DNA of 64,000 nucleotides, taken from NCBI GenBank assembly GCA_963665095.1, contig OY762069.1, forward strand, positions 3,424,001 through 3,488,000, in the 5' to 3' direction. This stretch comes from an uncultured Desulfobacter sp. Lineage in GTDB: Bacteria > Desulfobacterota > Desulfobacteria > Desulfobacterales > Desulfobacteraceae. Both the position numbers and the translations under genes were made by a program. Every line of letters begins with the position of its first letter. Within the stretch, counting starts at the first letter, position 1. The notes beneath the pieces were generated by a model. That model had not been told where the DNA came from. It saw nothing but the letters and a program-made list of their open reading frames with translations, and ran no database searches. Of this stretch, positions 36,338-52,702 are shown one piece after another.

Positions 36338-37024
36338 TTGCTGTACCGGAACGGGCCTGAATCAAGATGGATGTTATTGTTTGAAATCCGGTTTTTTATT
36401 GTCCTCCCCCTTTCGATAACAGCATATGGATTATCGCATACGAAATATAATGAAAAATACGGACGGCACCTTATCTGCGGCACAGCAGCCAGATCACAGC
36501 CCGCGATTTGTGGACCAATGCCTGATAAAATGTCCTATGTTATATGCTTAATTGACATTGACCATTTCAAACAAATAAATGACACATACGGCCATGAATA
36601 CGGCGACTCAGTCCTCAAGGAGATGTGCGCCCGGATTAAAAAAACAGTCAGAAAACAGGATATCTGTATCCGCTGGGGAGGCGAAGAGTTCCTTATTATA
36701 CTAAGGAACATCAACGCCCTATCTATCCGGGAAGCCACTCAACGTATTCAGACAGCTGTCTCATCAACTTCATTCTCCATTGGAAACCATGATCTCAGGG
36801 TAACGATCTCAGGCGGCATCTATCCGATCCTGCCCTGCTCTGTCGCCAACTTCACCGAAGTTGACACCCTTATAAACATTGCCGACAAAGCCCTTTATTA
36901 TGCCAAAACCAACGGACGGGATCAGTTTATCATGGCCGAGTGTGCGGACGATCTGCCTTGTACCAAAGTTGAGCGGTTTCAATCCACGCCCCCGCATGGA
37001 GGGCGACAATACACAACAATTTAA
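36338..37024 (+). pseudogene. GGDEF diguanylate cyclase fragment; reading frame ends inside the CRISPR array
   Basis: DIDHFKQINDTYGH, RWGGEEF, ADKALY.AK..GRD. No DxLTG N-terminus; the stop lies in the first spacer. Confidence 0.7.
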
Positions 37025-40000
37025 CTATTGGCAGCTTCCGTGTTTCAATCCACGCCCCCGCATGGAGGGCGACAATCGAATCAAGACTGTCTTTACAAAT
37101 AGGAGATGTTTCAATCCACGCCCCCGCATGGAGGGCGACAACTGTTCGCGATTATATCAGGGCGCATTTACTAGTTTCAATCCACGCCCCCGCATGGAGG
37201 GCGACACATCGTATTGTCTCCGTTTGCCGGGATCGGTTCCGTTTCAATCCACGCCCCCGCATGGAGGGCGACCATAAGGCCGGAAAAAATGTAAGTTTCC
37301 AAGCCGGTTTCAATCCACGCCCCCGCATGGAGGGCGACGTACATCTTTTATTCAGCATTCAGTCAGAATGCTGTTTCAATCCACACCCCCGCATGGAGGG
37401 CGACGCCCCACTTCAACCAATTTTTAAGGAGCAAAAATGTTTCAATCCACGCCCCCGCATGGAGGGCGACCTTTGAGATCACCAAAATCGCACCACTCAC
37501 TGTGTTTCAATCCACGCCCCCGCATGGAGGGCGACCTGTCGTCTGCCGCTGCCTGGCCTGATAATCATTGTTTCAATCCACGCCCCCGCATGGAGGGCGA
37601 CCTGTCCGGGTTTGGTTATTTGGCAAAAAAACCGGTTTCAATCCACGCCCCCGCATGGAGGGCGACTGAAAATAGTACATTTTGCAGATGTCCATTATGA
37701 TGTTTCAATCCACGCCCCCGCATGGAGGGCGACAAATCTCACTGTACACAAGGACCGCAGCATAATGGTTTCAATCCACGCCCCCGCATGGAGGGCGACC
37801 CAGCACGTCTGCCCCATCCAAATTGATATCGTCGTTTCAATCCACGCCCCCGCATGGAGGGCGACACTGATCTTTCTCCCGTCACAACACACCTAACAGG
37901 TTTCAATCCACGCCCCCGCATGGAGGGCGACGCGCCTATGGATCAAAACCAAACACTTCGCCAGGTTTCAATCCACGCCCCCGCATGGAGGGCGACCACG
38001 GAGAAAACCCCAAAGCCAAACTGCGGGTTGTTTCAATCCACGCCCCCGCATGGAGGGCGACAACAGTTCTGGCGATTTCCTTGACACGATAAACGTTTCA
38101 ATCCACGCCCCCGCATGGAGGGCGACAGCAGGTGATGTGGTGGCTGGAAAAACAATTGTGTGTTTCAATCCACGCCCCCGCATGGAGGGCGACGACCACC
38201 ATGAAGGTCCCTTCCAGCGGTGCCCAGTTTCAATCCACGCCCCCGCATGGAGGGCGACGTCAGAGTCCCACACCCGCCAGATCATCAAAGAAGTTTCAAT
38301 CCACGCCCCCGCATGGAGGGCGACATGATTTGGAGTATGCGCTTGACTGGGGGGCAGGTGTTTCAATCCACGCCCCCGCATGGAGGGCGACCAGCGTACC
38401 CACTACCATAATCTGATGAAAGTTGATGTTTCAATCCACGCCCCCGCATGGAGGGCGACATTTACTCATTGTCGTCTCTCCTTGTAAAAAATCGTTTCAA
38501 TCCACGCCCCCGCATGGAGGGCGACAAAGCTGCATAAAATGTGTTATATTTAGAGGCTTGTTTCAATCCACGCCCCCGCATGGAGGGCGACTTACTACCA
38601 AGCAACAAAAAATGTAGTAAATATTGTTTCAATCCACGCCCCCGCATGGAGGGCGACAGGCACTTGGAGTAGGATTGCCTGTTTTTCGACGTGTTTCAAT
38701 CCACGCCCCCGCATGGAGGGCGACTTATTTCCCGGCCCGTGTATGTTCCAACGGATTCGTTTCAATCCACGCCCCCGCATGGAGGGCGACAAGGACACAA
38801 ATTTTGACCGGTTAGCTTTTAGCCGTTTCAATCCACGCCCCCGCATGGAGGGCGACATAATTTTATGTTTATTTAGCCCTATCAATTCCCCGTTTCAATC
38901 CACGCCCCCGCATGGAGGGCGACTTTCGAAATATAGATGTGTTGCAAGCCAGTGACGGTTTCAATCCACGCCCCCGCATGGAGGGCGACCAGATGTTAAA
39001 AAAGGCCTGTTCTAATCCGCTTTCGTTTCAATCCACGCCCCCGCATGGAGGGCGACGTCCGGATCACTGACCGGCCCGCAGTCCGCTTTTGTTTCAATCC
39101 ACGCCCCCGCATGGAGGGCGACAAGCACCGCCGTCGTTACTATGTCTTTTGTCGATGTTTCAATCCACGCCCCCGCATGGAGGGCGACTTTGCCGAAGTC
39201 CAGCAAAAAGGCCCGCAGGTTTGTTTCAATCCACGCCCCCGCATGGAGGGCGACTTCGTTTTGCCATATCCTGTGTTACCCTGGTTCGTTTCAATCCACG
39301 CCCCCGCATGGAGGGCGACCGGCAATGCTGCCATCGGAATTACGGATATTCATCCGTTTCAATCCACGCCCCCGCATGGAGGGCGACGCCCCTGACTTTC
39401 GTGCTTCCGTCGAATTTGTTCTGTTTCAATCCACGCCCCCGCATGGAGGGCGACCTTTTTCAAGGTCCGGATGCAGTGGGACATTGCGGTTTCAATCCAC
39501 GCCCCCGCATGGAGGGCGACCCTCCATGATGGCCATGTTCGTCACTCCCACAGACGTTTCAATCCACGCCCCCGCATGGAGGGCGACAGTCAACAGAGTC
39601 CGACGGCCCGGCCACATGGATGTTTCAATCCACGCCCCCGCATGGAGGGCGACCGATACCGGTAATTTTCTTTCAACGGTCCACCTGTTTCAATCCACGC
39701 CCCCGCATGGAGGGCGACGCGTCACCAGACGGGGTAATTCCCGCGCCAGCCAGTTTCAATCCACGCCCCCGCATGGAGGGCGACAACTTCATACATGTCT
39801 CCGTTCAAAAGGAACGAGTTTCAATCCACGCCCCCGCATGGAGGGCGACCTGCTGGTGCGCGTGCCGGCCCCTTCATATTTACGTTTCAATCCACGCCCC
39901 CGCATGGAGGGCGACCTGCCCTCGGGCAATTCGTGCCGGTTCTGAAGGGTTTCAATCCACGCCCCCGCATGGAGGGCGACACCATCTGCCGATTAGATGT

Positions 40001-40841
40001 GATTAATACCAGTAGTTTCAATCCACGCCCCCGCATGGAGGGCGACTTGAGTTGAGGATATGGCAGAATAAATAGCAAAGGTTTCAATCCACGCCCCCGC
40101 ATGGAGGGCGACTAGGGGTTTTAACCGGTCTTGAGATCGCTTTTTTTGTTTCAATCCACGCCCCCGCATGGAGGGCGACTCCGGCAAGGGCCCGGGCATG
40201 ATCAAGTTTATTTGTTTCAATCCACGCCCCCGCATGGAGGGCGACGTGAAATTTTGGTTCGGCTGATTTCCCCCTGGTCTGTTTCAATCCACGCCCCCGC
40301 ATGGAGGGCGACCTACCGCCTCAAAAAACCAGGCCTCCTCTTCAGGTTTCAATCCACGCCCCCGCATGGAGGGCGACTCTGGCTAAAACAGGCTTTTTAG
40401 CCAGATCAGCCTGTTTCAATCCACGCCCCCGCATGGAGGGCGACATCCGGCACTGCGTTTGTGGGCCGGTTTTTTCCGTTTCAATCCACGCCCCCGCATG
40501 GAGGGCGACTTGTCATCCGTTGTTGGCCGTTGTTGTCATTGACGTTTCAATCCACGCCCCCGCATGGAGGGCGACGCATGTGACCGGCACAAACTGGTTG
40601 GCGTCGTCGGTTTCAATCCACGCCCCCGCATGGAGGGCGACCTGCCTAAAAGTGATGCCATGTTAATGGCATTCACTGTTTCAATCCACGCCCCCGCATG
40701 GAGGGCGACATCGTTAGAGCAAGACAGCGCATACTGGGTAGACGTTTCAATCCACGCCCCCGCATGGAGGGCGACACTGTTCCGGTTGTGACAGTTACAG
40801 AGCGAATCCGTTTCAATCCACGCCCCCGCATGGAGGGCGAC
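36976..40841 (-). CRISPR. type I-C CRISPR array, leader-distal half (59 repeats by my count)
   Basis: 32-bp repeat GTCGCCCTCCATGCGGGGGCGTGGATTGAAAC (minus strand), about 66-bp period, spacers 33-36 bp; one variant repeat at 37373. Confidence 0.98.
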
Positions 40842-40998
40842 CTGGGTAAAAGCCCGTTTTTGAGAATGATCACAAAAAATCATGGAAAAATTAAAGATAA
40901 TTTGCAAGATATGCCAGGGATGAGGCAGAAGCTCCCCCGTTTATCTCGCAAATAATCAATGGAACTTCTGCCCCTATTACCCTAACAGGGCAGGAGAT

Positions 40999-41574
40999 AT
41001 GCTATCAGAACTTATTAAAAACAAAAATCTTTTTTTCCATCTTTACGAAATCGATAAAAATACAGCAAAACAGTACAGACAGTTGCCTTGTCCGCATTGT
41101 GGAGGCCCCTTATATTTCAGCAATTACATGCGCAAGCCCCGGGGAGAGCCTGAGGGCGTGCCGGAGGAATTCTTTATTCAGTTCAGCCTATGTTGTGGAA
41201 CCGAAGGGTGTCGCAAAAGATTGATGCCGCCGTCCTGCCGTTTTCTGGGGAGAAAAGTCTACTGGTTTGCAGTTATTCTGTGTGTTTTAACAGACTGGCA
41301 AAATACCAATGAAAAAATCACCGTTTATGATTTGTCCATACGAACTGGCATTAGCCGGAACACAATAAACCGCTGGCTTGCCTTTTTTCAGGATACATTT
41401 CCAGTGAGCCGAACCTGGCGAAGGCTTCGGGGGCAGATATCCGCTGGTGTCAGTAACAGCCGTCTGCCGTCAAGTTTCATCAATTATTGCCGGGCGGTGA
41501 AATCCAACGCCGAAAACGCACTTGTATCAAGCCTGATAATCTTATCAGGCGGGTCCAAAATCAGGGCCGGATAA
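40999..41574 (+). CDS. transposon accessory protein, Cys-rich zinc finger plus HTH
   Basis: CPHCGG...CCGTEGCRKR; LSIRTGISRNTINRW. Confidence 0.7.
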   Translation: MLSELIKNKNLFFHLYEIDKNTAKQYRQLPCPHCGGPLYFSNYMRKPRGEPEGVPEEFFIQFSLCCGTEGCRKRLMPPSCRFLGRKVYWFAVILCVLTDWQNTNEKITVYDLSIRTGISRNTINRWLAFFQDTFPVSRTWRRLRGQISAGVSNSRLPSSFINYCRAVKSNAENALVSSLIILSGGSKIRAG

Positions 41575-41680
41575 TCTCGCGCAGAGGATGAACATAGACA
41601 AATATATGCAGGCTGTTTTACCACCTGATTTCAGACGTTGATCCGAAATTTTAACCTGAAATTAAAAAGGAGCCTGATTT

Positions 41681-43126
41681 ATGAGTGGTAAAACACAGCA
41701 CCCGGCAGACCTGTGGGCATTATTTCGCTTTTCGGTTATCGGCGGTTTACTGGCACGCCCTCCGGCAAAGGGAGAGTTGCAAAATGAACTGACCCGGCTC
41801 GCAGGTCAAATCTATTCTCATCCTGTGACGAACAAACCGACCTGTTTTCATTTTTCCACAATTGAGGCCTGGTATTACAGGGCAAAAAATTGCCAGGACC
41901 CAATTCTGGCTCTGGGCCGTAAAGTTCGTTCAGATATGGGCAAATCCACAGCATTGAATGCTGAATTGATCCGCCTTCTTGGTGTCCAGTACAACACTTA
42001 TCCGCAATGGAGCTATCAGCTTCATTGCGACAACCTGGCAGCTGAAATCGCTGAACAGGGCCTGTGTGAGAATCCGCCGTCCTATGCAAGTGTGAGAAGG
42101 CGTATGGTTGAACGGGGTTGGAGAAAAAAGGCTTCCAAGAACAAAAATCAAACATCCGGACAGAAATCAGCTTTTAAGCGATTAGAAACGTATGAAGTCC
42201 GTAGTTATGAAACCGAAAACATCCATGAATTATGGCATCTGGACTTTCACGAATGCAGCAGGCGCGTGGTGGACGAAAAAGGTCAGTGGCATACGCCCAA
42301 GGCATTGTGCATTCTTGATGATCGCTCCCGTCTGTGTTGTCATATTCAATGGTATTTGAATGAAACGGCAGAGGTTTTGATCCACGGCTTGTCCCAGGCG
42401 TTTTACAAAAGAGGGCTTCCCAGAGCCTTGATGACAGATAATGGTTCTGCCATGATTGCTCATGAAACCGGCAACGGACTTAAACGATTGGGCGTCAGTC
42501 ATGAGACCACGTTGCCATACTCGCCCTATCAAAATGGGAAGCAGGAAGCCTTTTGGGGTACACTTGAAGGCCGTTTGATCGCCATGCTGAGCCGGATGGA
42601 TTCTTTGACCCTGGTATATTTAAATCAGGTCTCCCAGGCCTGGATCGAGATGGAATACAACAAGTCAACCCATGATGAAATTCATATGTCGCCATTGCAA
42701 TGCGCCCTTGACGGCAAGGATGTGTCACGTCCTGCACCGGAACCTGAACAGCTTCAATTTTCGTTTACAGCCTGTGAATCCAGAAAACAGCGTCTGTCCG
42801 ATGGTACCATCTCTTTGATGGGCATCCGGTTTGAAATCCCTTCACGGTTTAATCATATCCAGCGTCTTCATGTCTGTTTTTGCTCCTGGGATAAATCGGT
42901 TGCCTGGCTGATAGATAAACGAACCGGAAATAAGCTTGCCGCAATTTATCCCCAGGACAAGACAAAGAATGCTTCAGCAATCCGTCGTATCAAATCCACT
43001 CCGGATGAAATTAACCCTGGCCATGAAACCCTGTCCGGATCAGAACCGGCCCTGCTTAAAAAGCTCTTGTCCGATTATGCAGCAACCGGAATGCCTTGTG
43101 CCTACTTGCCAATGGAGGAAAAGTGA
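41681..43126 (+). CDS. DDE transposase (rve core; IS481/Mu-like)
   Basis: WHLDF, ILDDRSR, TDNGS, PYQNGKQE; Mu-like C-terminal DGTISL.G.RFEIP. Confidence 0.9.
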   Translation: MSGKTQHPADLWALFRFSVIGGLLARPPAKGELQNELTRLAGQIYSHPVTNKPTCFHFSTIEAWYYRAKNCQDPILALGRKVRSDMGKSTALNAELIRLLGVQYNTYPQWSYQLHCDNLAAEIAEQGLCENPPSYASVRRRMVERGWRKKASKNKNQTSGQKSAFKRLETYEVRSYETENIHELWHLDFHECSRRVVDEKGQWHTPKALCILDDRSRLCCHIQWYLNETAEVLIHGLSQAFYKRGLPRALMTDNGSAMIAHETGNGLKRLGVSHETTLPYSPYQNGKQEAFWGTLEGRLIAMLSRMDSLTLVYLNQVSQAWIEMEYNKSTHDEIHMSPLQCALDGKDVSRPAPEPEQLQFSFTACESRKQRLSDGTISLMGIRFEIPSRFNHIQRLHVCFCSWDKSVAWLIDKRTGNKLAAIYPQDKTKNASAIRRIKSTPDEINPGHETLSGSEPALLKKLLSDYAATGMPCAYLPMEEK

Positions 43127-43950
43127 TGAACAGCAAACGATTATTGGCTTATTATGGATTGAAGTACAATCCTTTTTTACCAAATATTCCTGTGGACTCA
43201 TTATGGCATCCACCCCGGATGGAGGCATTTATTACACGCCTTGAAAATATGACCATGAACGGTGGATTTGCATTAATCGCCGGTGAACCCGGTCTTGGCA
43301 AATCCAAGACACTACAGGCGATTGCCCATCAGCTTGGCAAGCTTGATGAAGTCGTTGTCGGCGTTATGGAGCGCCCCCAAAGCAGCGTGGCCGATTTCTA
43401 TCGGGAAATGGGGACACTGTTTGGTGTCAATTTGAGTCCGGCCAACCGTTACGGAGGGTTCAAAGATCTGCGGCAACGATGGAAAAATCATATTAAAACA
43501 ACCCTGTTCAGACCCGTCCTGCTCATTGATGAGGCTCAGGAAATGCTTACCGGATGCCTGAATGAGCTTCGGTTGCTCAACAGTATGGATTTTGACTCCC
43601 AGAATTTATTGACCACCATTATCTGTGGTGATACCCGGCTGCCGGAACGGTTCAGAACCAGTGCATTGGTAGCCCTGGGGAGTCGACTCCGGTTCCGGTT
43701 AAAATTGGATCCTTATACCCGGGAAGAATTGTTGGATTATATAGCGCATTGCCTAAATCAGGCCGGAGCTCCTCAACTCATGACAAAACCTTTAATCACC
43801 GCTTTGGTAGAGCACTGTACAGGAAACTTACGGGTCCTCAATAATATGTCGGCAGAACTGCTTGAAGTGGGCGTTCAAAGAGAGCTGCCGCAACTGGATG
43901 AGAAACTTTTCATAGAGCTTTTTTCACTGAAACCGTCGCCAACCAGATAA
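43126..43950 (+). CDS. transposon AAA ATPase (ExeA/TnsC/MuB-like)
   Basis: GEPGLGKS, LLIDEAQ; ATG overlaps the transposase stop. Confidence 0.85.
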   Translation: MNSKRLLAYYGLKYNPFLPNIPVDSLWHPPRMEAFITRLENMTMNGGFALIAGEPGLGKSKTLQAIAHQLGKLDEVVVGVMERPQSSVADFYREMGTLFGVNLSPANRYGGFKDLRQRWKNHIKTTLFRPVLLIDEAQEMLTGCLNELRLLNSMDFDSQNLLTTIICGDTRLPERFRTSALVALGSRLRFRLKLDPYTREELLDYIAHCLNQAGAPQLMTKPLITALVEHCTGNLRVLNNMSAELLEVGVQRELPQLDEKLFIELFSLKPSPTR

Positions 43951-43961
43951 GAGGTATAAAA

Positions 43962-44204
43962 ATGACAATCAATGAAACACAACTTGAAAAAACAATGGCT
44001 GAAATTGTCGACGAGCTGGGCAATCTGGTCATGGAGTTGATCCTTGTCAGTTTAAAAAAAATAAACTCGGAAAATCATCTTTTGACAGAATTGCTGGAGA
44101 TCAAACAAGAGGAACAAAGAGAAAATGAATTTTATGGTTTTGGTGAAACGGAGCCGGGACATCCTGGGGAGGAAACCCGGCAAGGGATAGCCAAAAGCAG
44201 GTAG
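43962..44204 (+). CDS. small acidic hypothetical protein of the transposon
   Basis: GAGG RBS, 80 aa, followed by a terminator. Confidence 0.55.
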   Translation: MTINETQLEKTMAEIVDELGNLVMELILVSLKKINSENHLLTELLEIKQEEQRENEFYGFGETEPGHPGEETRQGIAKSR

Positions 44205-44221
44205 CATTGAATAATGCGCCG

Positions 44222-44253
44222 GGGGAAGCGGGGTTGACCTGCTTCCCCTTTCT
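44222..44253 (+). terminator. rho-independent terminator inside the transposon
   Basis: GGGGAAGCGGG-GTTGA-CCTGCTTCCCC-TTTCT. Confidence 0.7.
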
Positions 44254-44419
44254 GTATTATTCAAGCTTTCCTGCTCATGCCTTAAAAAACCCAATAAAAT
44301 CAGTCGGAGCGCAGCGACATCTGCTAATCATTGAAAATACAGTTATGCCTTTCCCTGATTTATCCTGATTGTCGCTCCATTGATTATCGTGCTTCCTCTC
44401 ATTTTACCCAGATCGACCT

Positions 44420-47400
44420 GTTTCAATCCACGCCCCCGCATGGAGGGCGACACATTTGGACAGTCAACGGTGTAGAGATGGTTTTTGTTTCAATCCACGC
44501 CCCCGCATGGAGGGCGACCTTAGCTTTTAAATACGTAGCGCAGTTGAACAAGTTTCAATCCACGCCCCCGCATGGAGGGCGACCGAGTTTTTGATACCAT
44601 AATCGTTTACAAGGAGTGTTTCAATCCACGCCCCCGCATAGAGGGCGACTGCCTAAAAGTGATGCCATGTTAATGGCATTCACTGTTTCAATCCACGCCC
44701 CCGCATGGAGGGCGACCAGCAGGGCATAGTCAAACGGCACGTTCAAGGGCTTGTTTCAATCCACGCCCCCGCATGGAGGGCGACTCTGTGGATGTTTTAA
44801 GGGTTTGTTGTCAGAGTTTGTTTCAATCCACGCCCCCGCATGGAGGGCGACCGTAAAGAGCGAATTGCAGTTGATGAACGGCAGCGTTTCAATCCACGCC
44901 CCCGCATGGAGGGCGACACGGTGACCTTGATGCCGCTGATGATGTATGTGCCGTTTCAATCCACGCCCCCGCATGGAGGGCGACAAGTAACAACCGCTGG
45001 GACAAGAGTTGTTACACTGTTTCAATCCACGCCCCCGCATGGAGGGCGACCATTGTGCCCAACTTTAGGGCCAACGTGTCCCGTGTTTCAATCCACGCCC
45101 CCGCATGGAGGGCGACTATTTTCCCTGCCGGTGTGGGGCAAAAGGTTGATGTTTCAATCCACGCCCCCGCATGGAGGGCGACCATTGTGCCAAATTTTAG
45201 GGCTAACGTGTCCCGTGTTTCAATCCACGCCCCCGCATGGAGGGCGACATTATTTTTCAATCAATTCAATGTTTGTGGCGGTGTTTCAATCCACGCCCCC
45301 GCATGGAGGGCGACCAGAGTCACCAAGGGAGACTTGTTTAAGGGCTTGTTTCAATCCACGCCCCCGCATGGAGGGCGACACAAAAATTGTTACACTGCAG
45401 AGGAGGCAATAACGTTTCAATCCACGCCCCCGCATGGAGGGCGACCATCTGCAGCTCTTTTTTACCAGGGTCCATATACGTTTCAATCCACGCCCCCGCA
45501 TGGAGGGCGACCGTCAGGCGTGTCTGTGGGACATTAAGTATCACATGTTTCAATCCACGCCCCCGCATGGAGGGCGACCCAGACCCAGACCCAGACCCAG
45601 ACCAATGCTAAGTTTCAATCCACGCCCCCGCATGGAGGGCGACCACAAACCAGACCAAATCTGAGACCAATGCTAAGTTTCAATCCACGCCCCCGCATGG
45701 AGGGCGACCGTCGAAAAACAGACAATCCCGCTCCAAGTGCCTGTTTCAATCCACGCCCCCGCATGGAGGGCGACCAAGAGCTGTTACACTGCAGAGGAGG
45801 CAGCAACGTTTCAATCCACGCCCCCGCATGGAGGGCGACCCCAATGTTTTCAGTGACTTAGGAGCAATACTGCGTTTCAATCCACGCCCCCGCATGGAGG
45901 GCGACGCAAGCACTTTAGGGGTTTGTTGGCGGAGTTTGAGTTTCAATCCACGCCCCCGCATGGAGGGCGACGCGCGAAGAGAGGCGCTGGATTCGTTTCC
46001 TTCCCGTTTCAATCCACGCCCCCGCATGGAGGGCGACCTGCAGCCTTTTCTTTGGGGGAAGTAGAGTCATTGTTTCAATCCACGCCCCCGCATGGAGGGC
46101 GACTCCCGTTTGGCGCTGAATTCAGCGCTGAGGTGTACGTTTCAATCCACGCCCCCGCATGGAGGGCGACGCCTAAAAGTGATGCCACGTTAATGGCATT
46201 CACTGTTTCAATCCACGCCCCCGCATGGAGGGCGACACTACTGGCCATTGTGCCAAATTTTAGGGCCAACGTTTCAATCCACGCCCCCGCATGGAGGGCG
46301 ACACCTTTTGCTGCTGGCGTTCCTGTCATAGTTATTCGTTTCAATCCACGCCCCCGCATGGAGGGCGACCCGCATGGCTTTCACTGCTTCCCATGTTCCA
46401 GGCGTTTCAATCCACGCCCCCGCATGGAGGGCGACCGCATGGCTTTCACTGCTTCCCATGTTCTATGCGTTTCAATCCACGCCCCCGCATGGAGGGCGAC
46501 ATAGGTGATCCCGATTTTCCAGACCTGCAATATGTTTCAATCCACGCCCCCGCATGGAGGGCGACACCCAACCAAACCGGGTTAAAAGCGGACAAAACCG
46601 TTTCAATCCACGCCCCCGCATGGAGGGCGACGACTATAGGCCGCTTAAATCAGGCGGGATCAGCTGTTTCAATCCACGCCCCCGCATGGAGGGCGACCCA
46701 AATGTTCCAGCTGTTCCGGCTGTTACAACGTGTTTCAATCCACGCCCCCGCATGGAGGGCGACGCGACTTTGATGCCGCCGAGGACGTATGTGCTGTTTC
46801 AATCCACGCCCCCGCATGGAGGGCGACCCCAATGTTTTCAGGGACTTAGGAGCAATACTGCGTTTCAATCCACGCCCCCGCATGGAGGGCGACTTTCTCT
46901 TTCAGCTACTCCGATGTCCCAGTCCACGTTTCAATCCACGCCCCCGCATGGAGGGCGACATTATTCAGCCTCCCCCATCACCCGGTACCGGCCGTTTCAA
47001 TCCACGCCCCCGCATGGAGGGCGACAGGGCGGGATTTGAACCCGCGATGTGCTGAGGGGTTTCAATCCACGCCCCCGCATGGAGGGCGACCTGGTTGTGA
47101 GCTGGTAAGCAAGCGCCAGCTCACGTTTCAATCCACGCCCCCGCATGGAGGGCGACAACTTGCTCCCATGCCCTACTACTCCAAGCCCGTGTTTCAATCC
47201 ACGCCCCCGCATGGAGGGCGACTCGCGGCAGCGGCCGTGATACCGCCCCTGTCACCGTTTCAATCCACGCCCCCGCATGGAGGGCGACCCAATGTTTTCA
47301 GGGACTTAGGAGCAATACTGCGTTTCAATCCACGCCCCCGCATGGAGGGCGACGCTCTAATTTGCAGTATAGATAACTATACCGCCGGTTTCAATCCACG

Positions 47401-48276
47401 CCCCCGCATGGAGGGCGACTTGTCATGAAGATAGACGCGCTTATAGACAAAATGTTTCAATCCACGCCCCCGCATGGAGGGCGACAAGACCCACGCCCCG
47501 CCTTTTGTCTCCACATCCTGTTTCAATCCACGCCCCCGCATGGAGGGCGACCGCCGGACTTGCGGAAATATTACCGGGTGGTCAGGTTTCAATCCACGCC
47601 CCCGCATGGAGGGCGACTGGGCGCGTTCAAAAAAGACAAACCACTTTTCAGGTTTCAATCCACGCCCCCGCATGGAGGGCGACTCGCGATTGCTATTTGA
47701 GGCTTTATATCGCGGTTGTTTCAATCCACGCCCCCGCATGGAGGGCGACCAGCCCGGTTAGTTGGTGCACCTACCTGCGTGGTCGTTTCAATCCACGCCC
47801 CCGCATGGAGGGCGACTCTTCAATCCCGTTCATAATGAGATTGTTTTAAGCGTTTCAATCCACGCCCCCGCATGGAGGGCGACGTAGAGCATAGTCAAAC
47901 GACCTGTTCAAAGCTTTGTTTCAATCCACGCCCCCGCATGGAGGGCGACCGCCAGGCATATGAAACGGATGAACAGTATGAAGTTTCAATCCACGCCCCC
48001 GCATGGAGGGCGACCAAGATTTTTTTCAAACAACTGTGCCTTCTCCCGTTTCAATCCACGCCCCCGCATGGAGGGCGACTGTCAGGCACCACAACATCCT
48101 CTGCAGGTGTCGTGTTTCAATCCACGCCCCCGCATGGAGGGCGACCCCAAAATACGCTATACAGATGGAAAAGCACTTGTTTCAATCCACGCCCCCGCAT
48201 GGAGGGCGACACCCGCAACCGGTCTATGGATGTTTTAAAGGCCCGTTTCAATCCACGCCCCCGCATGGAGGGCGAC
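44420..48276 (-). CRISPR. type I-C CRISPR array, leader-proximal half (59 repeats by my count)
   Basis: Same 32-bp repeat; one variant at 44618; ends at the AT-rich leader next to cas2. Confidence 0.98.
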
Positions 48277-50544: not shown

Positions 50545-51822
50545 TTAAAATCCGACCTCCCCAATATAAGGAAGGGCACCGTATCGTCCCTGAAGATACC
50601 CCTTTTCCAGCGCATCCCTTTTACAAGGATGAAAATCGGATAGCGAATAAAGCTGTGTGGCAGACGCGTTATCCTTTTCCACAAACCAGATCTGATCCCA
50701 TCTTAAAATTTTTAAATCCAGGATGGATGTATCATGGGTGGAAAAGACAAGCTGTCCATTGGCCTTATTAGAGACACGATTATGGATCATCCGAAGCAAA
50801 AACCGAATCATATGAGGATGAAAACTATTATTTAATTCATCAACAATCAATACCCGTCCATTTGTCAAAAGATCCAGCCAGGGACCGGCATAGGCAAAAA
50901 TTTTCTGCGTCCCAGCCGACTCATCCTCCAGTTTGAACGAGGTGGTCTGCTCCGAATCATTCATTTTATGGATGAATTCAACCTGCTTGAAACCTGTCCC
51001 GTTCAAATCCGTTGCTATTTTTTTCTTCAGCTCTCCGGGAACATTATCAGGCATTTTAATTTTATCTGTACTCAATTTGTCTGTTTTAATCCGGATGCCA
51101 TCCAGATTAACATCCGCACCTTTCATAAATGCCAGCACAGTGTTTCTGACAGTTTCTTCCTCACATTGTTCAATGGTAAACCCGGGATCAACATTCACCC
51201 CATGTCCGATAATCATCAATTTTTTAAACCAGGCAAACACTGGTTTTAACTGTTCACTGTTCAATTGCACAGCAACCGACAGGAAAAGGGCATTGGGGCG
51301 TGTATTCTCTTTCCATGTTTTTTTATTTCCGGCGAGTTTATTGCCCAAAGACCAGGCTTCTTCACCGGTTTTAGAATCAAATGAACGCTCAAACCATCGT
51401 TGAGGCCGGCTTTCCGGGTATGCCAGAAGCCACTCCCCGGTAACCCGTGCCTCATTACATGCAAATCCGTATTGGTACCGTACCTCGTCCTGGATAAAAA
51501 AAATCTCAAGTTCTGTTGACTCTGAAAGTCCCTGAGAATTCAGTCTGAATGGGAAACGATTGATAGTGTCTCCATCCTGTCCATGTCTGGAAGAGTCCAG
51601 GACAAAGCGCTGCATAAAGCCAAGCGCAGAAATCAAATTGCTTTTGCCCGCCCCATTGGGTCCCCAAATAACAGCAGACTTTAACAGTTTCAATAATCCC
51701 TTTATGGGGGTATCAAACACATTGCTGTCCTGCAGATCCTTAATGGCATTGCCTGCCGTCATGCTAAGGGTCTGCTGTTCCCACACAGATTTATAATTTT
51801 TTACACTGAATTCAATAAGCAT
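50545..51822 (-). CDS. ABC-type AAA ATPase (AAA_21/RloA/AbiEii-associated type)
   Basis: FSVKNYKS, GPNGAGKSN, ESAGT, LIVDE, FSTHD, YLQGRYGALP. Confidence 0.85.
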   Translation of the reverse strand: MLIEFSVKNYKSVWEQQTLSMTAGNAIKDLQDSNVFDTPIKGLLKLLKSAVIWGPNGAGKSNLISALGFMQRFVLDSSRHGQDGDTINRFPFRLNSQGLSESTELEIFFIQDEVRYQYGFACNEARVTGEWLLAYPESRPQRWFERSFDSKTGEEAWSLGNKLAGNKKTWKENTRPNALFLSVAVQLNSEQLKPVFAWFKKLMIIGHGVNVDPGFTIEQCEEETVRNTVLAFMKGADVNLDGIRIKTDKLSTDKIKMPDNVPGELKKKIATDLNGTGFKQVEFIHKMNDSEQTTSFKLEDESAGTQKIFAYAGPWLDLLTNGRVLIVDELNNSFHPHMIRFLLRMIHNRVSNKANGQLVFSTHDTSILDLKILRWDQIWFVEKDNASATQLYSLSDFHPCKRDALEKGYLQGRYGALPYIGEVGF

Positions 51823-51886
51823 GATGCATTTTCCAAATTTGGAAAAAAACAAAAAAACTGCATTTTTTGCAATGAAAATATAATTT

Positions 51887-52702
51887 CTATTGTTTTAGGC
51901 TCCGGTTTCTTTGTTTTTCATGGACCTCATCCACAAGATCCATGGACACTTTCCAGACCTGTTCACAAAAGGCTGAAAACGCGTTTAACGCCTCCGGTTC
52001 CGGCAACAGTTCACCACCACCTTGAATCTGTCCGACAGCGTAATGATACTGGGACAGTGCATCAATATAGGTTTTGCGCGCTTCCTTTGGCACAATGACG
52101 GGCGGCAGGCCCGCCTTTAAGACCGGCAGGTTGGCAACAAGTCTTGCCATCCTGCCGTTACCATCAAAAAAGGGATGAATGTGAACAAAGGAGACATGAA
52201 GAGCAACATAAGCCTGCAATGCCGTTTCTCTATCCCCGGGCACAGTTGATGACATAAGCTTATGATAGAGCGTAAACCACTTTTCCATAAGTTGGGGGAC
52301 ATCTTCGGGCAATGCATACTCAAAGACCACCTGTTTCTCATCCACCACGCCCACAGTGGAGTTGGGCTCTTTTTTCCAGCCCCCCACAGGTTTGTATATA
52401 TCAACAACCACATGGGTCTGAACCGCTTTGTGAAGATTGAACAGCGCCTCTTCATCAAAAGATCCCCCCTGGTCCAGCAATCCATAAACCAGATCAATGG
52501 CCCTGGCATGACCCACCACCTCCTCATGGTCCTTGAGGGGCTTGCCCGAAACGGTCAAGCCCTCTTCAAGAACAAAGGCGGTTTCACCCAAAGTCAGGGA
52601 GTTGCCCTCAATGGCTGTGGAGGTGTGGGTCCACAGGTTGCGCAGCTGGGTTATCAGGGCTTTTTGGAGGTCTTTGTCAAGATCCTGTAAAAAATAAAGC
52701 AT
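51887..52702 (-). CDS. Fic family protein
   Basis: HPFFDGNGRMAR catalytic motif; N-terminal inhibitory STAIEGN. Confidence 0.9.
   Translation of the reverse strand: MLYFLQDLDKDLQKALITQLRNLWTHTSTAIEGNSLTLGETAFVLEEGLTVSGKPLKDHEEVVGHARAIDLVYGLLDQGGSFDEEALFNLHKAVQTHVVVDIYKPVGGWKKEPNSTVGVVDEKQVVFEYALPEDVPQLMEKWFTLYHKLMSSTVPGDRETALQAYVALHVSFVHIHPFFDGNGRMARLVANLPVLKAGLPPVIVPKEARKTYIDALSQYHYAVGQIQGGGELLPEPEALNAFSAFCEQVWKVSMDLVDEVHEKQRNRSLKQ

Follow-up and report, generated by a model that had tools for sequence, protein, structure and literature searches.

A Tn6049-type transposon with target duplications of 3 to 7 bp in a CRISPR spacer of an uncultured Desulfobacter sp.

Introduction

According to the literature, Tn6049 is present in 12 copies in Cupriavidus metallidurans CH34 and also on the Pseudomonas aeruginosa plasmid pHS87a, is described as frequently linked to genomic islands and comprises a module which 'could not be categorized' (PMC6210171). 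Here we describe a transposon of this type, termed E1, which interrupts a CRISPR array of an uncultured Desulfobacter sp. (assembly GCA_963665095.1, contig OY762069.1, positions 3,424,001 to 3,488,000). This whole stretch of 64,000 nucleotides is called the window, and coordinates refer to it unless given as genome positions. A preliminary description of the site had proposed a preference of the element for hairpin or repetitive extragenic palindromic (REP)-like targets.

Several other systems are relevant for comparison. The insertion sequence (IS) IS21 has two direct repeats per end which are about 23 bp apart, and no strong target sequence (PMC10122671). For IS5376 the same source lists ten sequenced events, each with 5-bp repeats, and the ATPase is described as required for correct duplications (PMC10122671); the IS21 work suggests that the ATPase sets the duplication length (PMC10122671). 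In the usual view the geometry of the transposase fixes the stagger, and duplications of variable length have been noted for IS481, IS1202 and IS481EU (PMC10045372). Furthermore, a three-gene DUF6431-DDE-AAA cassette with 15 copies was reported for Clostridium sp. JS66 (bioRxiv 10.64898/2026.08.16.744336). Mobile elements in CRISPR loci are already in print.

Results

Copies, ends and target duplications

Within the 6.9-Mb genome E1 is present as 12 identical copies, one copy of 96.7% identity and one 349-nt left-end fragment. The ends were confirmed by the 12 other full-length copies, which part from their flanks exactly at the positions equivalent to 40861 and 44401. Contigs from 4 of 20 listed public runs, which may include the source sample and are hence not independent, stop at 40860 and 44401 as well, and their flanks match other genomic E1 copies. 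Neither a joint across the element nor a circle junction was found in these contigs, which cannot show absence. The insertion itself proved to be real, and the TGAGA…TCTCA ends, the TTTT at both ends of the element, the 59/59 split of the array and the 10-bp hairpin of the rebuilt spacer were all confirmed as preliminarily described. We infer transposition of E1 from the 12 identical copies with their distinct duplications. Altogether, E1 is very probably a multi-copy Tn6049-type transposon which enters unrelated, non-hairpin sites under duplication of 3 to 7 bp and whose arrival in a hairpin spacer was likely a chance landing.

At the 13 full E1 copies, the longest duplications that match exactly amount to 5, 3, 4, 7, 6, 6, 3, 0, 3, 6, 4 (CRISPR site), 6 and 6 bp, matched duplications being found on both sides of 12 of them. 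The copy with the value of zero has a 7-bp repeat in which a single position, adjacent to the left end, is mismatched. Two descriptions fit the copy at G000:C1:2570829-2574369, namely a 6-bp duplication plus one extra left-end base or a 7-bp duplication with one mismatch; the extra base could be the remnant of a circle junction.

For a broader basis, the E1 copies were pooled with relatives from 79 loci found via the transposase and from 20 fetched regions. Over 44 pooled sites, duplications of 3 bp occur 11 times, those of 4, 5 and 6 bp 10 times each and those of 7 bp three times; thereby the CRISPR site was set by hand to 3 bp and the site at genome position 2570829 to 7 bp (6/7 match). Excluded from this tally are 18 loci with an uncertain end or without a duplication of at least 3 bp (L031, L032, L034, L047, L048, L052, L055, L070, L075, L082-L085, L087, L094, L097, L123 and L129). 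L036 duplicates L035 and was removed, and loci missing an end were left unscored. Chance matches of 3 bp (1 in 64) would explain less than one site. It is this spread of the duplications, 3 to 7 bp within E1 and almost flat over the 44 pooled sites, which remains unusual. No description of it was found in the literature searched, where Tn6049 was not searched by name, and it may be in print.

For comparison, 12 distinct sites of Tn6049 gave duplications of 4 bp (four sites), 5 bp (three), 6 bp (two) and 7 bp (one), with two sites lacking a duplication. Planctomycete copies mostly have 5 bp (6/8), and the spread is clade-dependent. In one planctomycete assembly three loci (L083, L084, L087) have exchanged their 5-bp duplications cyclically, which points to recombination between copies or to misassembly.

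Target sites

Inspection of the flanks of the other copies for hairpins, as put forward in the preliminary description, revealed non-palindromic targets: none of the 12 other full-length E1 sites has a perfect inverted repeat of at least 6 bp. The 43 non-CRISPR sites for which both ends and a duplication are available are likewise at background: versus local flanks the mean fold percentile is 0.53 (Wilcoxon P = 0.57), the lowest 5% of fold energy holds 3 of 43, and an inverted repeat of at least 7 bp occurs at 1 of 43; in this set copies of the same genome count as separate events, but the genomes are related. Among the distinct Tn6049 sites, 1 of 12 shows a 7-bp inverted repeat and hairpins are not enriched. 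Counting of the bases around the cuts gave no more than a slight tendency towards C/T at positions 1 and 2 of longer duplications, and no clear target consensus emerged over the pooled sites. Hairpin targeting is largely refuted, and the idea that the spacer offered a copy of a natural landing site gained no support, neither a protospacer (see below) nor a consensus being found.

The first gene of the element, ORF1 (open reading frame 1), had been suggested as a target selector. Since the targets are dispersed, a sequence- or structure-specific role of this kind is unsupported; ORF1 may take part in a loose bias to low-GC accessory DNA. Eight of the 12 other E1 copies lie inside stop-free frames of at least 287 codons, and safe-site targeting is therefore not indicated. 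The orientation of the copies relative to the replichores, as derived from GC skew, is 5 to 8 and shows no bias.

The CRISPR insertion site

The array is of type I-C with 118 repeats of 32 nt. Its interruption in spacer 59 leaves 59 repeats on each side and a 3,578-bp gap after repeat 59; the even split has no meaning beyond position. A profile scan located the genes for Cas3, Cas5, Cas8c/Csd1, Cas7, Cas4 and Cas1 on the minus strand to the right of the array, and a frame visible in translation near them, outside the profile scan, we take to be cas2-like. The leader presumably lies at the right (cas) end, so that the array would be transcribed on the minus strand.

Reconstruction of the empty site yields a perfect 10-bp inverted repeat, which is equalled by 1 in 5000 random genome sites, and a folding energy in the lowest 0.1%. 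Within the array the interrupted spacer ranks 5th of 117 spacers in fold energy. The 3-bp duplication that the preliminary description had left open is favoured over 4 bp, though not proven, because the rebuilt spacer then has the modal length of 34 nt, as do 66 of the 116 intact spacers, and because it matches spacer 52 better, with 25/34 identical positions ungapped compared with 16/33 for a 4-bp duplication.

Searches for a protospacer with the hairpin motif gave no match in viral contigs and none in metagenome contigs; in 160 other genomes of the family the single match lies within an unrelated coding gene, and no protospacer was found. The motif of spacers 56/63/86 was absent from the viral contigs and from all 160 genomes, and comparison of the right half of the array with annotated phages gave weak or repeat-driven matches only. 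An empty-site array, sought in 40 relatives, was not found.

Near-duplicate spacer families were observed within 40642-48244 (56/63/86, 69/71/87, 81/96/103, 89/90, 74/80, 67/95 and 26/79), and several of the strongest hairpin spacers of the array fall in such families. This suggests repeated acquisition from one small, varying invader. Spacer 51 (40313-40345) matches the host chromosome at 27/29 nt near genome position 2275802. In addition, the cas operon holds a Fic-domain gene and an AAA_21 ATPase gene between cas7 and cas4 (50545-52702).

Genes and ends of the element

Judged from the sequence, three genes make up the core of E1, encoding a zinc-finger/helix-turn-helix (HTH) protein, a DDE transposase similar to TnsB and an ATPase of ExeA/AAA_22 type; ORF4 is a passenger (Table 1). 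The gene order agrees with the preliminary one (zinc finger/HTH, rve DDE, ATPase, 80-aa ORF). Its placement as a TnsB/TnsC-like element rather than a simple IS also held, the element being multi-gene, with an AAA_22/ExeA-like ATPase and with TnsB as the best PDB match of the transposase profile (E = 4e-12, profile positions 43-408). ORF2 has an rve core whose DDE residues are invariant in 45 sequences; as to the proposed Mu-like tail, the Mu-transposase C-terminal Pfam match is lacking in ORF2 itself but occurs in 9 of its 45 aligned relatives.

In ORF1, an HTH is accompanied by four cysteines that are invariant (C31, C34, C66, C71), and its relatives form 2,560 clusters at 50% identity, conserved across phyla. 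The ORF1 model, although confident (predicted local distance difference test, pLDDT, 84.7), gave no Foldseek match at E<=0.001 and a best VIA Z of 4.5; the fold searches returned generic HTH and zinc-ribbon matches only, nothing specific. ORF1 resembles DUF6431-bearing clusters by language-model features only (0.95-0.97). Neither ORF1 nor its homologues gave a hidden Markov model match to PF20020 (DUF6431), where in one scan the control also gave none. At profile level no TniQ family is among the listed Pfam matches of 68 and 30 ORF1 homologues.

ORF3 displays a Walker A (GEPGLGKS) and a Walker B (LLIDE) motif and has AAA_22/ExeA-type matches and no IstB Pfam match. Among the relatives, ORF1 lies upstream of the transposase in 72 of 75 and the ATPase downstream in 73 of 74 scorable loci, and a homologue of ORF4 was found in 2 of 79 related loci. 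Instead, the fourth-gene slot can be occupied by a RepB primase, or by an AAA_25 (RepA-like) protein with a CHC2 zinc finger (L035:6500-7288; L071:6309-7708). Within the element no TnsA, TniQ/TnsD, TnsE, Cas effector, resolvase or att site was found. The closest named carriers are Desulfobacula, Desulfobacter and Desulfospira, which makes a sulfate reducer related to these the probable host.

The terminal inverted repeat of the left end is imperfect and agrees with the right end at 17/26 positions. A motif recurs at element positions 11, 45 and 88, and these copies are predicted transposase-binding sites. Comparison of 16 elements revealed that the right-end motif pair is spaced by 24 bp in most of them, whereas the left end is less regular, with one clear motif copy and weaker others.

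Table 1 Features of E1 and of its insertion site (window coordinates).
Feature	Position	Strand	Remarks
Tn6049-type transposon (E1)	40861..44401	+	3,541 bp, 46% GC, TGAGA…TCTCA ends, four plus-strand ORFs
E1 left end	40861..40962	+	TGAGA terminus, imperfect terminal inverted repeat, motif copies
ORF1, 191 aa, predicted zinc ribbon plus HTH	40999..41574	+	core gene
ORF2, 481 aa, rve/DDE transposase, TnsB-like	41681..43126	+	D188, D253, E289
ORF3, AAA_22/ExeA-type ATPase	43096..43950	+	274 aa from ATG at 43126
ORF4, 80 aa, no family match	43962..44204	+	passenger slot
Terminator-like hairpin with T tail after ORF4	44221..44259	+	
E1 right end	44353..44401	-	motif in two copies, 11 and 35 from terminus
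Type I-C CRISPR array	36976..48276	-	split 59/59; probable minus-strand transcription
Left half of interrupted spacer 59	40842..40860	.	final T run contains left target-duplication copy
Right copy of target duplication (3 or 4 T), then spacer 59 right half	44402..44419	.	
Spacer 52	40378..40412	.	intact hairpin spacer homologous to interrupted spacer 59

Relationship to Tn6049 and a second element

The best annotated relative of E1 is a 3,517-bp element of C. metallidurans CH34 with the same gene order. Both are colinear, with identities of 34% for ORF1, 48.6% over 95% for the transposase and 50% for the ATPase, and 31 of 50 bases are identical at the right end. The CH34 element is located at three places of the chromid and once each on pMOL28 and pMOL30. 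It was named Tn6049 because this copy pattern and the size agree with the published table; the sequence records do not carry the name. Tn6048 turned out to be the wrong identity, as it is a 10.4-kb element of the Tn5053 family, and ISChy3 and related IS481 names, taken up as leads, led nowhere.

Furthermore, the genome harbors a second three-gene element, E2, of 3098 bp in 14 copies with TGT…ACA ends (e.g. G000:C1:962693-965790; L112:194-3291). It encodes a zinc-finger protein of 148 aa, a DDE enzyme of 418 aa (28% to ORF2) and an AAA_22 ATPase, and its duplications are only 4 or 5 bp. A comparison of ORF1 with the E2 zinc-finger protein gave a probability of only 13%. A non-coding segment of about 200 bp near the right end (44127-44323) is common to E1 and E2 with 80% identity and includes the terminator-like hairpin, although the proteins are less than 30% alike; this segment is possibly a swapped module.

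Discussion

Proposed mechanism

In analogy to the TnsB/TnsC, MuA/MuB and IstA/IstB pairs, the TnsB-like DDE enzyme of E1 would bind the repeated end motifs and nick at the terminal CA, and the AAA+ ATPase would load onto the target DNA and bring in the transposase, as TnsC, MuB and IstB do. If E1 is indeed such a transposon, copy-out/paste-in via a circle with joined ends appears the likeliest pathway, with slightly better than even chances, because no TnsA and no resolvase are encoded and because the duplications match at 12 of 13 copies. Intramolecular replicative transposition leads to deletions or inversions with unmatched flanks. A plasmid shuttle or a cut-and-repair route are alternatives to copy-out/paste-in. 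Target cuts that are loosely spaced, or sequential strand transfers, could give rise to duplications of 3 to 7 bp. ORF1 is likely a DNA-binding accessory factor in end binding or regulation. Within the array, the insertion would have moved the 59 leader-distal repeats away from the leader by 3.5 kb, and their expression may be poor.

Chance landing and its alternatives

Several observations weigh against a chance landing by an indiscriminate element. None of the 44 pooled sites forms a stronger hairpin than the CRISPR site, and the E1 copy at genome position 1466127 lies in an imperfect hairpin in the 1st percentile of fold energy. For any of 13 copies to hit the 7.8-kb array, the probability is only 1.5%; with all 113 multi-copy loci taken together it rises to 12%, which speaks for a chance landing. 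The DNA around E1 has a low GC content at the scales of 1 kb (P = 0.005) and 5 kb (P = 0.001), and 5 of 13 E1 copies lie at most 20 kb from an E2 copy where 1.2 are expected (P = 0.005, with a post hoc threshold). Finally, neither a circle junction nor an empty site turned up, with contigs as the only material, so the pathway is deduced indirectly. The low probability and the strength of the hairpin are tempered by the fact that the CRISPR site was picked because it is striking, and the insertion into the array is most likely an accident.

Regarding hairpins, it appears very improbable that E1 prefers hairpin or REP-like targets or recognized in the spacer a copy of the site at which it naturally lands on a phage or plasmid. 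The rare 10-bp hairpin speaks for it, as do spacer 52, which marks the hairpin as a conserved feature of some invader, and a 9-nt word common to the left flanks here and at genome position 947471; the other 43 sites and the 12 Tn6049 sites show no enrichment, no protospacer came up in any of the three collections, and shared words of at least 9 nt arise in 259 of 2000 random sets, so that this word is attributed to chance. A weaker version, in which insertion is mostly random with a slight preference for extruded hairpins or for open transcribed DNA, an effect too small for 43 sites, is unlikely as well. The CRISPR site and 1466127, two of the 13 copies, fold at the 1st percentile or lower, and the IS21 ATPase paper mentions structure-based site selectivity via DNA deformation, but the 3 of 43 sites in the lowest 5% compare with about 2 expected and one of the two hairpins was chosen for its oddness. 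Retention of the insertion because it silenced old spacers, e.g. a self-targeting one, has little probability: spacer 51 belongs to the leader-distal half and inactivation of CRISPR loci by IS elements is already published, but the cas genes look intact and the self match is partial.

More plausible, though still doubtful, is an active steering of insertions by ORF1 and the ATPase to low-GC, horizontally acquired regions. It is consistent with the kb-scale low-GC surroundings, the clustering with E2, the reported association of Tn6049 with genomic islands and the conservation of ORF1 across phyla. However, GC bias is absent at the scales of 25 bp (P = 0.66) and 100 bp (P = 0.23), the CRISPR site lies in DNA of 54% GC, and ORF1 has no TniQ match. 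Selection for harmless sites, i.e. survival in dispensable genes, explains both the low GC and the E2 clustering equally well.

Significance

While the insertion could silence half of a large array, the Tn6049-type family matters more than the CRISPR site, as it is large by its ORF1 clusters and its type element is uncategorized. The flat spectrum of duplications conflicts with the view of a geometry-fixed stagger. A 3.5-kb, three-protein system is easily reconstituted and would allow a direct test of an AAA+ ATPase and an accessory DNA-binding protein setting the cut spacing. We tentatively consider it possible that Tn6049-type elements are a widespread, unclassified ATPase-assisted DDE branch with unfixed cut spacing (3 to 7 bp at similar rates), which also needs ORF1, a protein that may steer it to low-GC acquired DNA without TniQ.

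Comparison with known systems

E1 resembles IS21 in combining a DDE transposase with an AAA+ ATPase and in the terminal CA, and the right-end motifs at 11 and 35 are IS21-like, whereas the left end is less regular. IS21 has two genes, in contrast to the third core gene of Tn6049-type elements (72/75 loci). Membership in IS21 was rejected, since ORF2 scores 37.4 against a 160-bit cut-off and ORF3 lacks an IstB match.

With Tn7-like TnsB/TnsC and Mu MuA/MuB, E1 shares the TnsB profile match and the AAA_22 ATPase, and the Mu C-terminal domain is found in the relatives mentioned above. Duplications of Tn7 and Mu are fixed at 5 bp, unlike those of E1. A Tn7-like element or CRISPR-associated transposon was rejected on account of the lack of a TniQ/TnsD profile among the listed matches and of cas genes in the element, and because the 13 sites are unrelated and have duplications of 3 to 7 bp.

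IS481 is the RefSeq label of the Tn6049 transposase and the best NCBIfam match of ORF2, and its ends are of the TG…CA type. The score of 89.9 is below the 224-bit cut-off, ORF2 has 481 aa compared with a model of 284 positions, and the ATPase and ORF1 are extra, so that membership was rejected here as well. Duplications of IS481-type elements vary in discrete steps of about 10 bp (PMC10045372), as opposed to the continuous 3 to 7 bp of E1. The JS66 cassette is, by its published description, similar in its three-gene plan and its multiple copies; it bears DUF6431, for which ORF1 and its homologues have no Pfam match.

Tn6049 itself agrees with E1 in its TG…CA ends, the same right-end motif, the high copy number and variable duplications (4 to 7 bp). 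It differs in the termini (TGTG versus TGAGA in E1), in the 3-bp duplications, which are seen for E1 and absent among its 12 sites, and in an unrelated fourth gene (no tblastn match), a slot that varies across relatives and is not family-defining. On the basis of these sequence comparisons, E1 is assigned to the Tn6049 group only, a mechanistically unstudied family.

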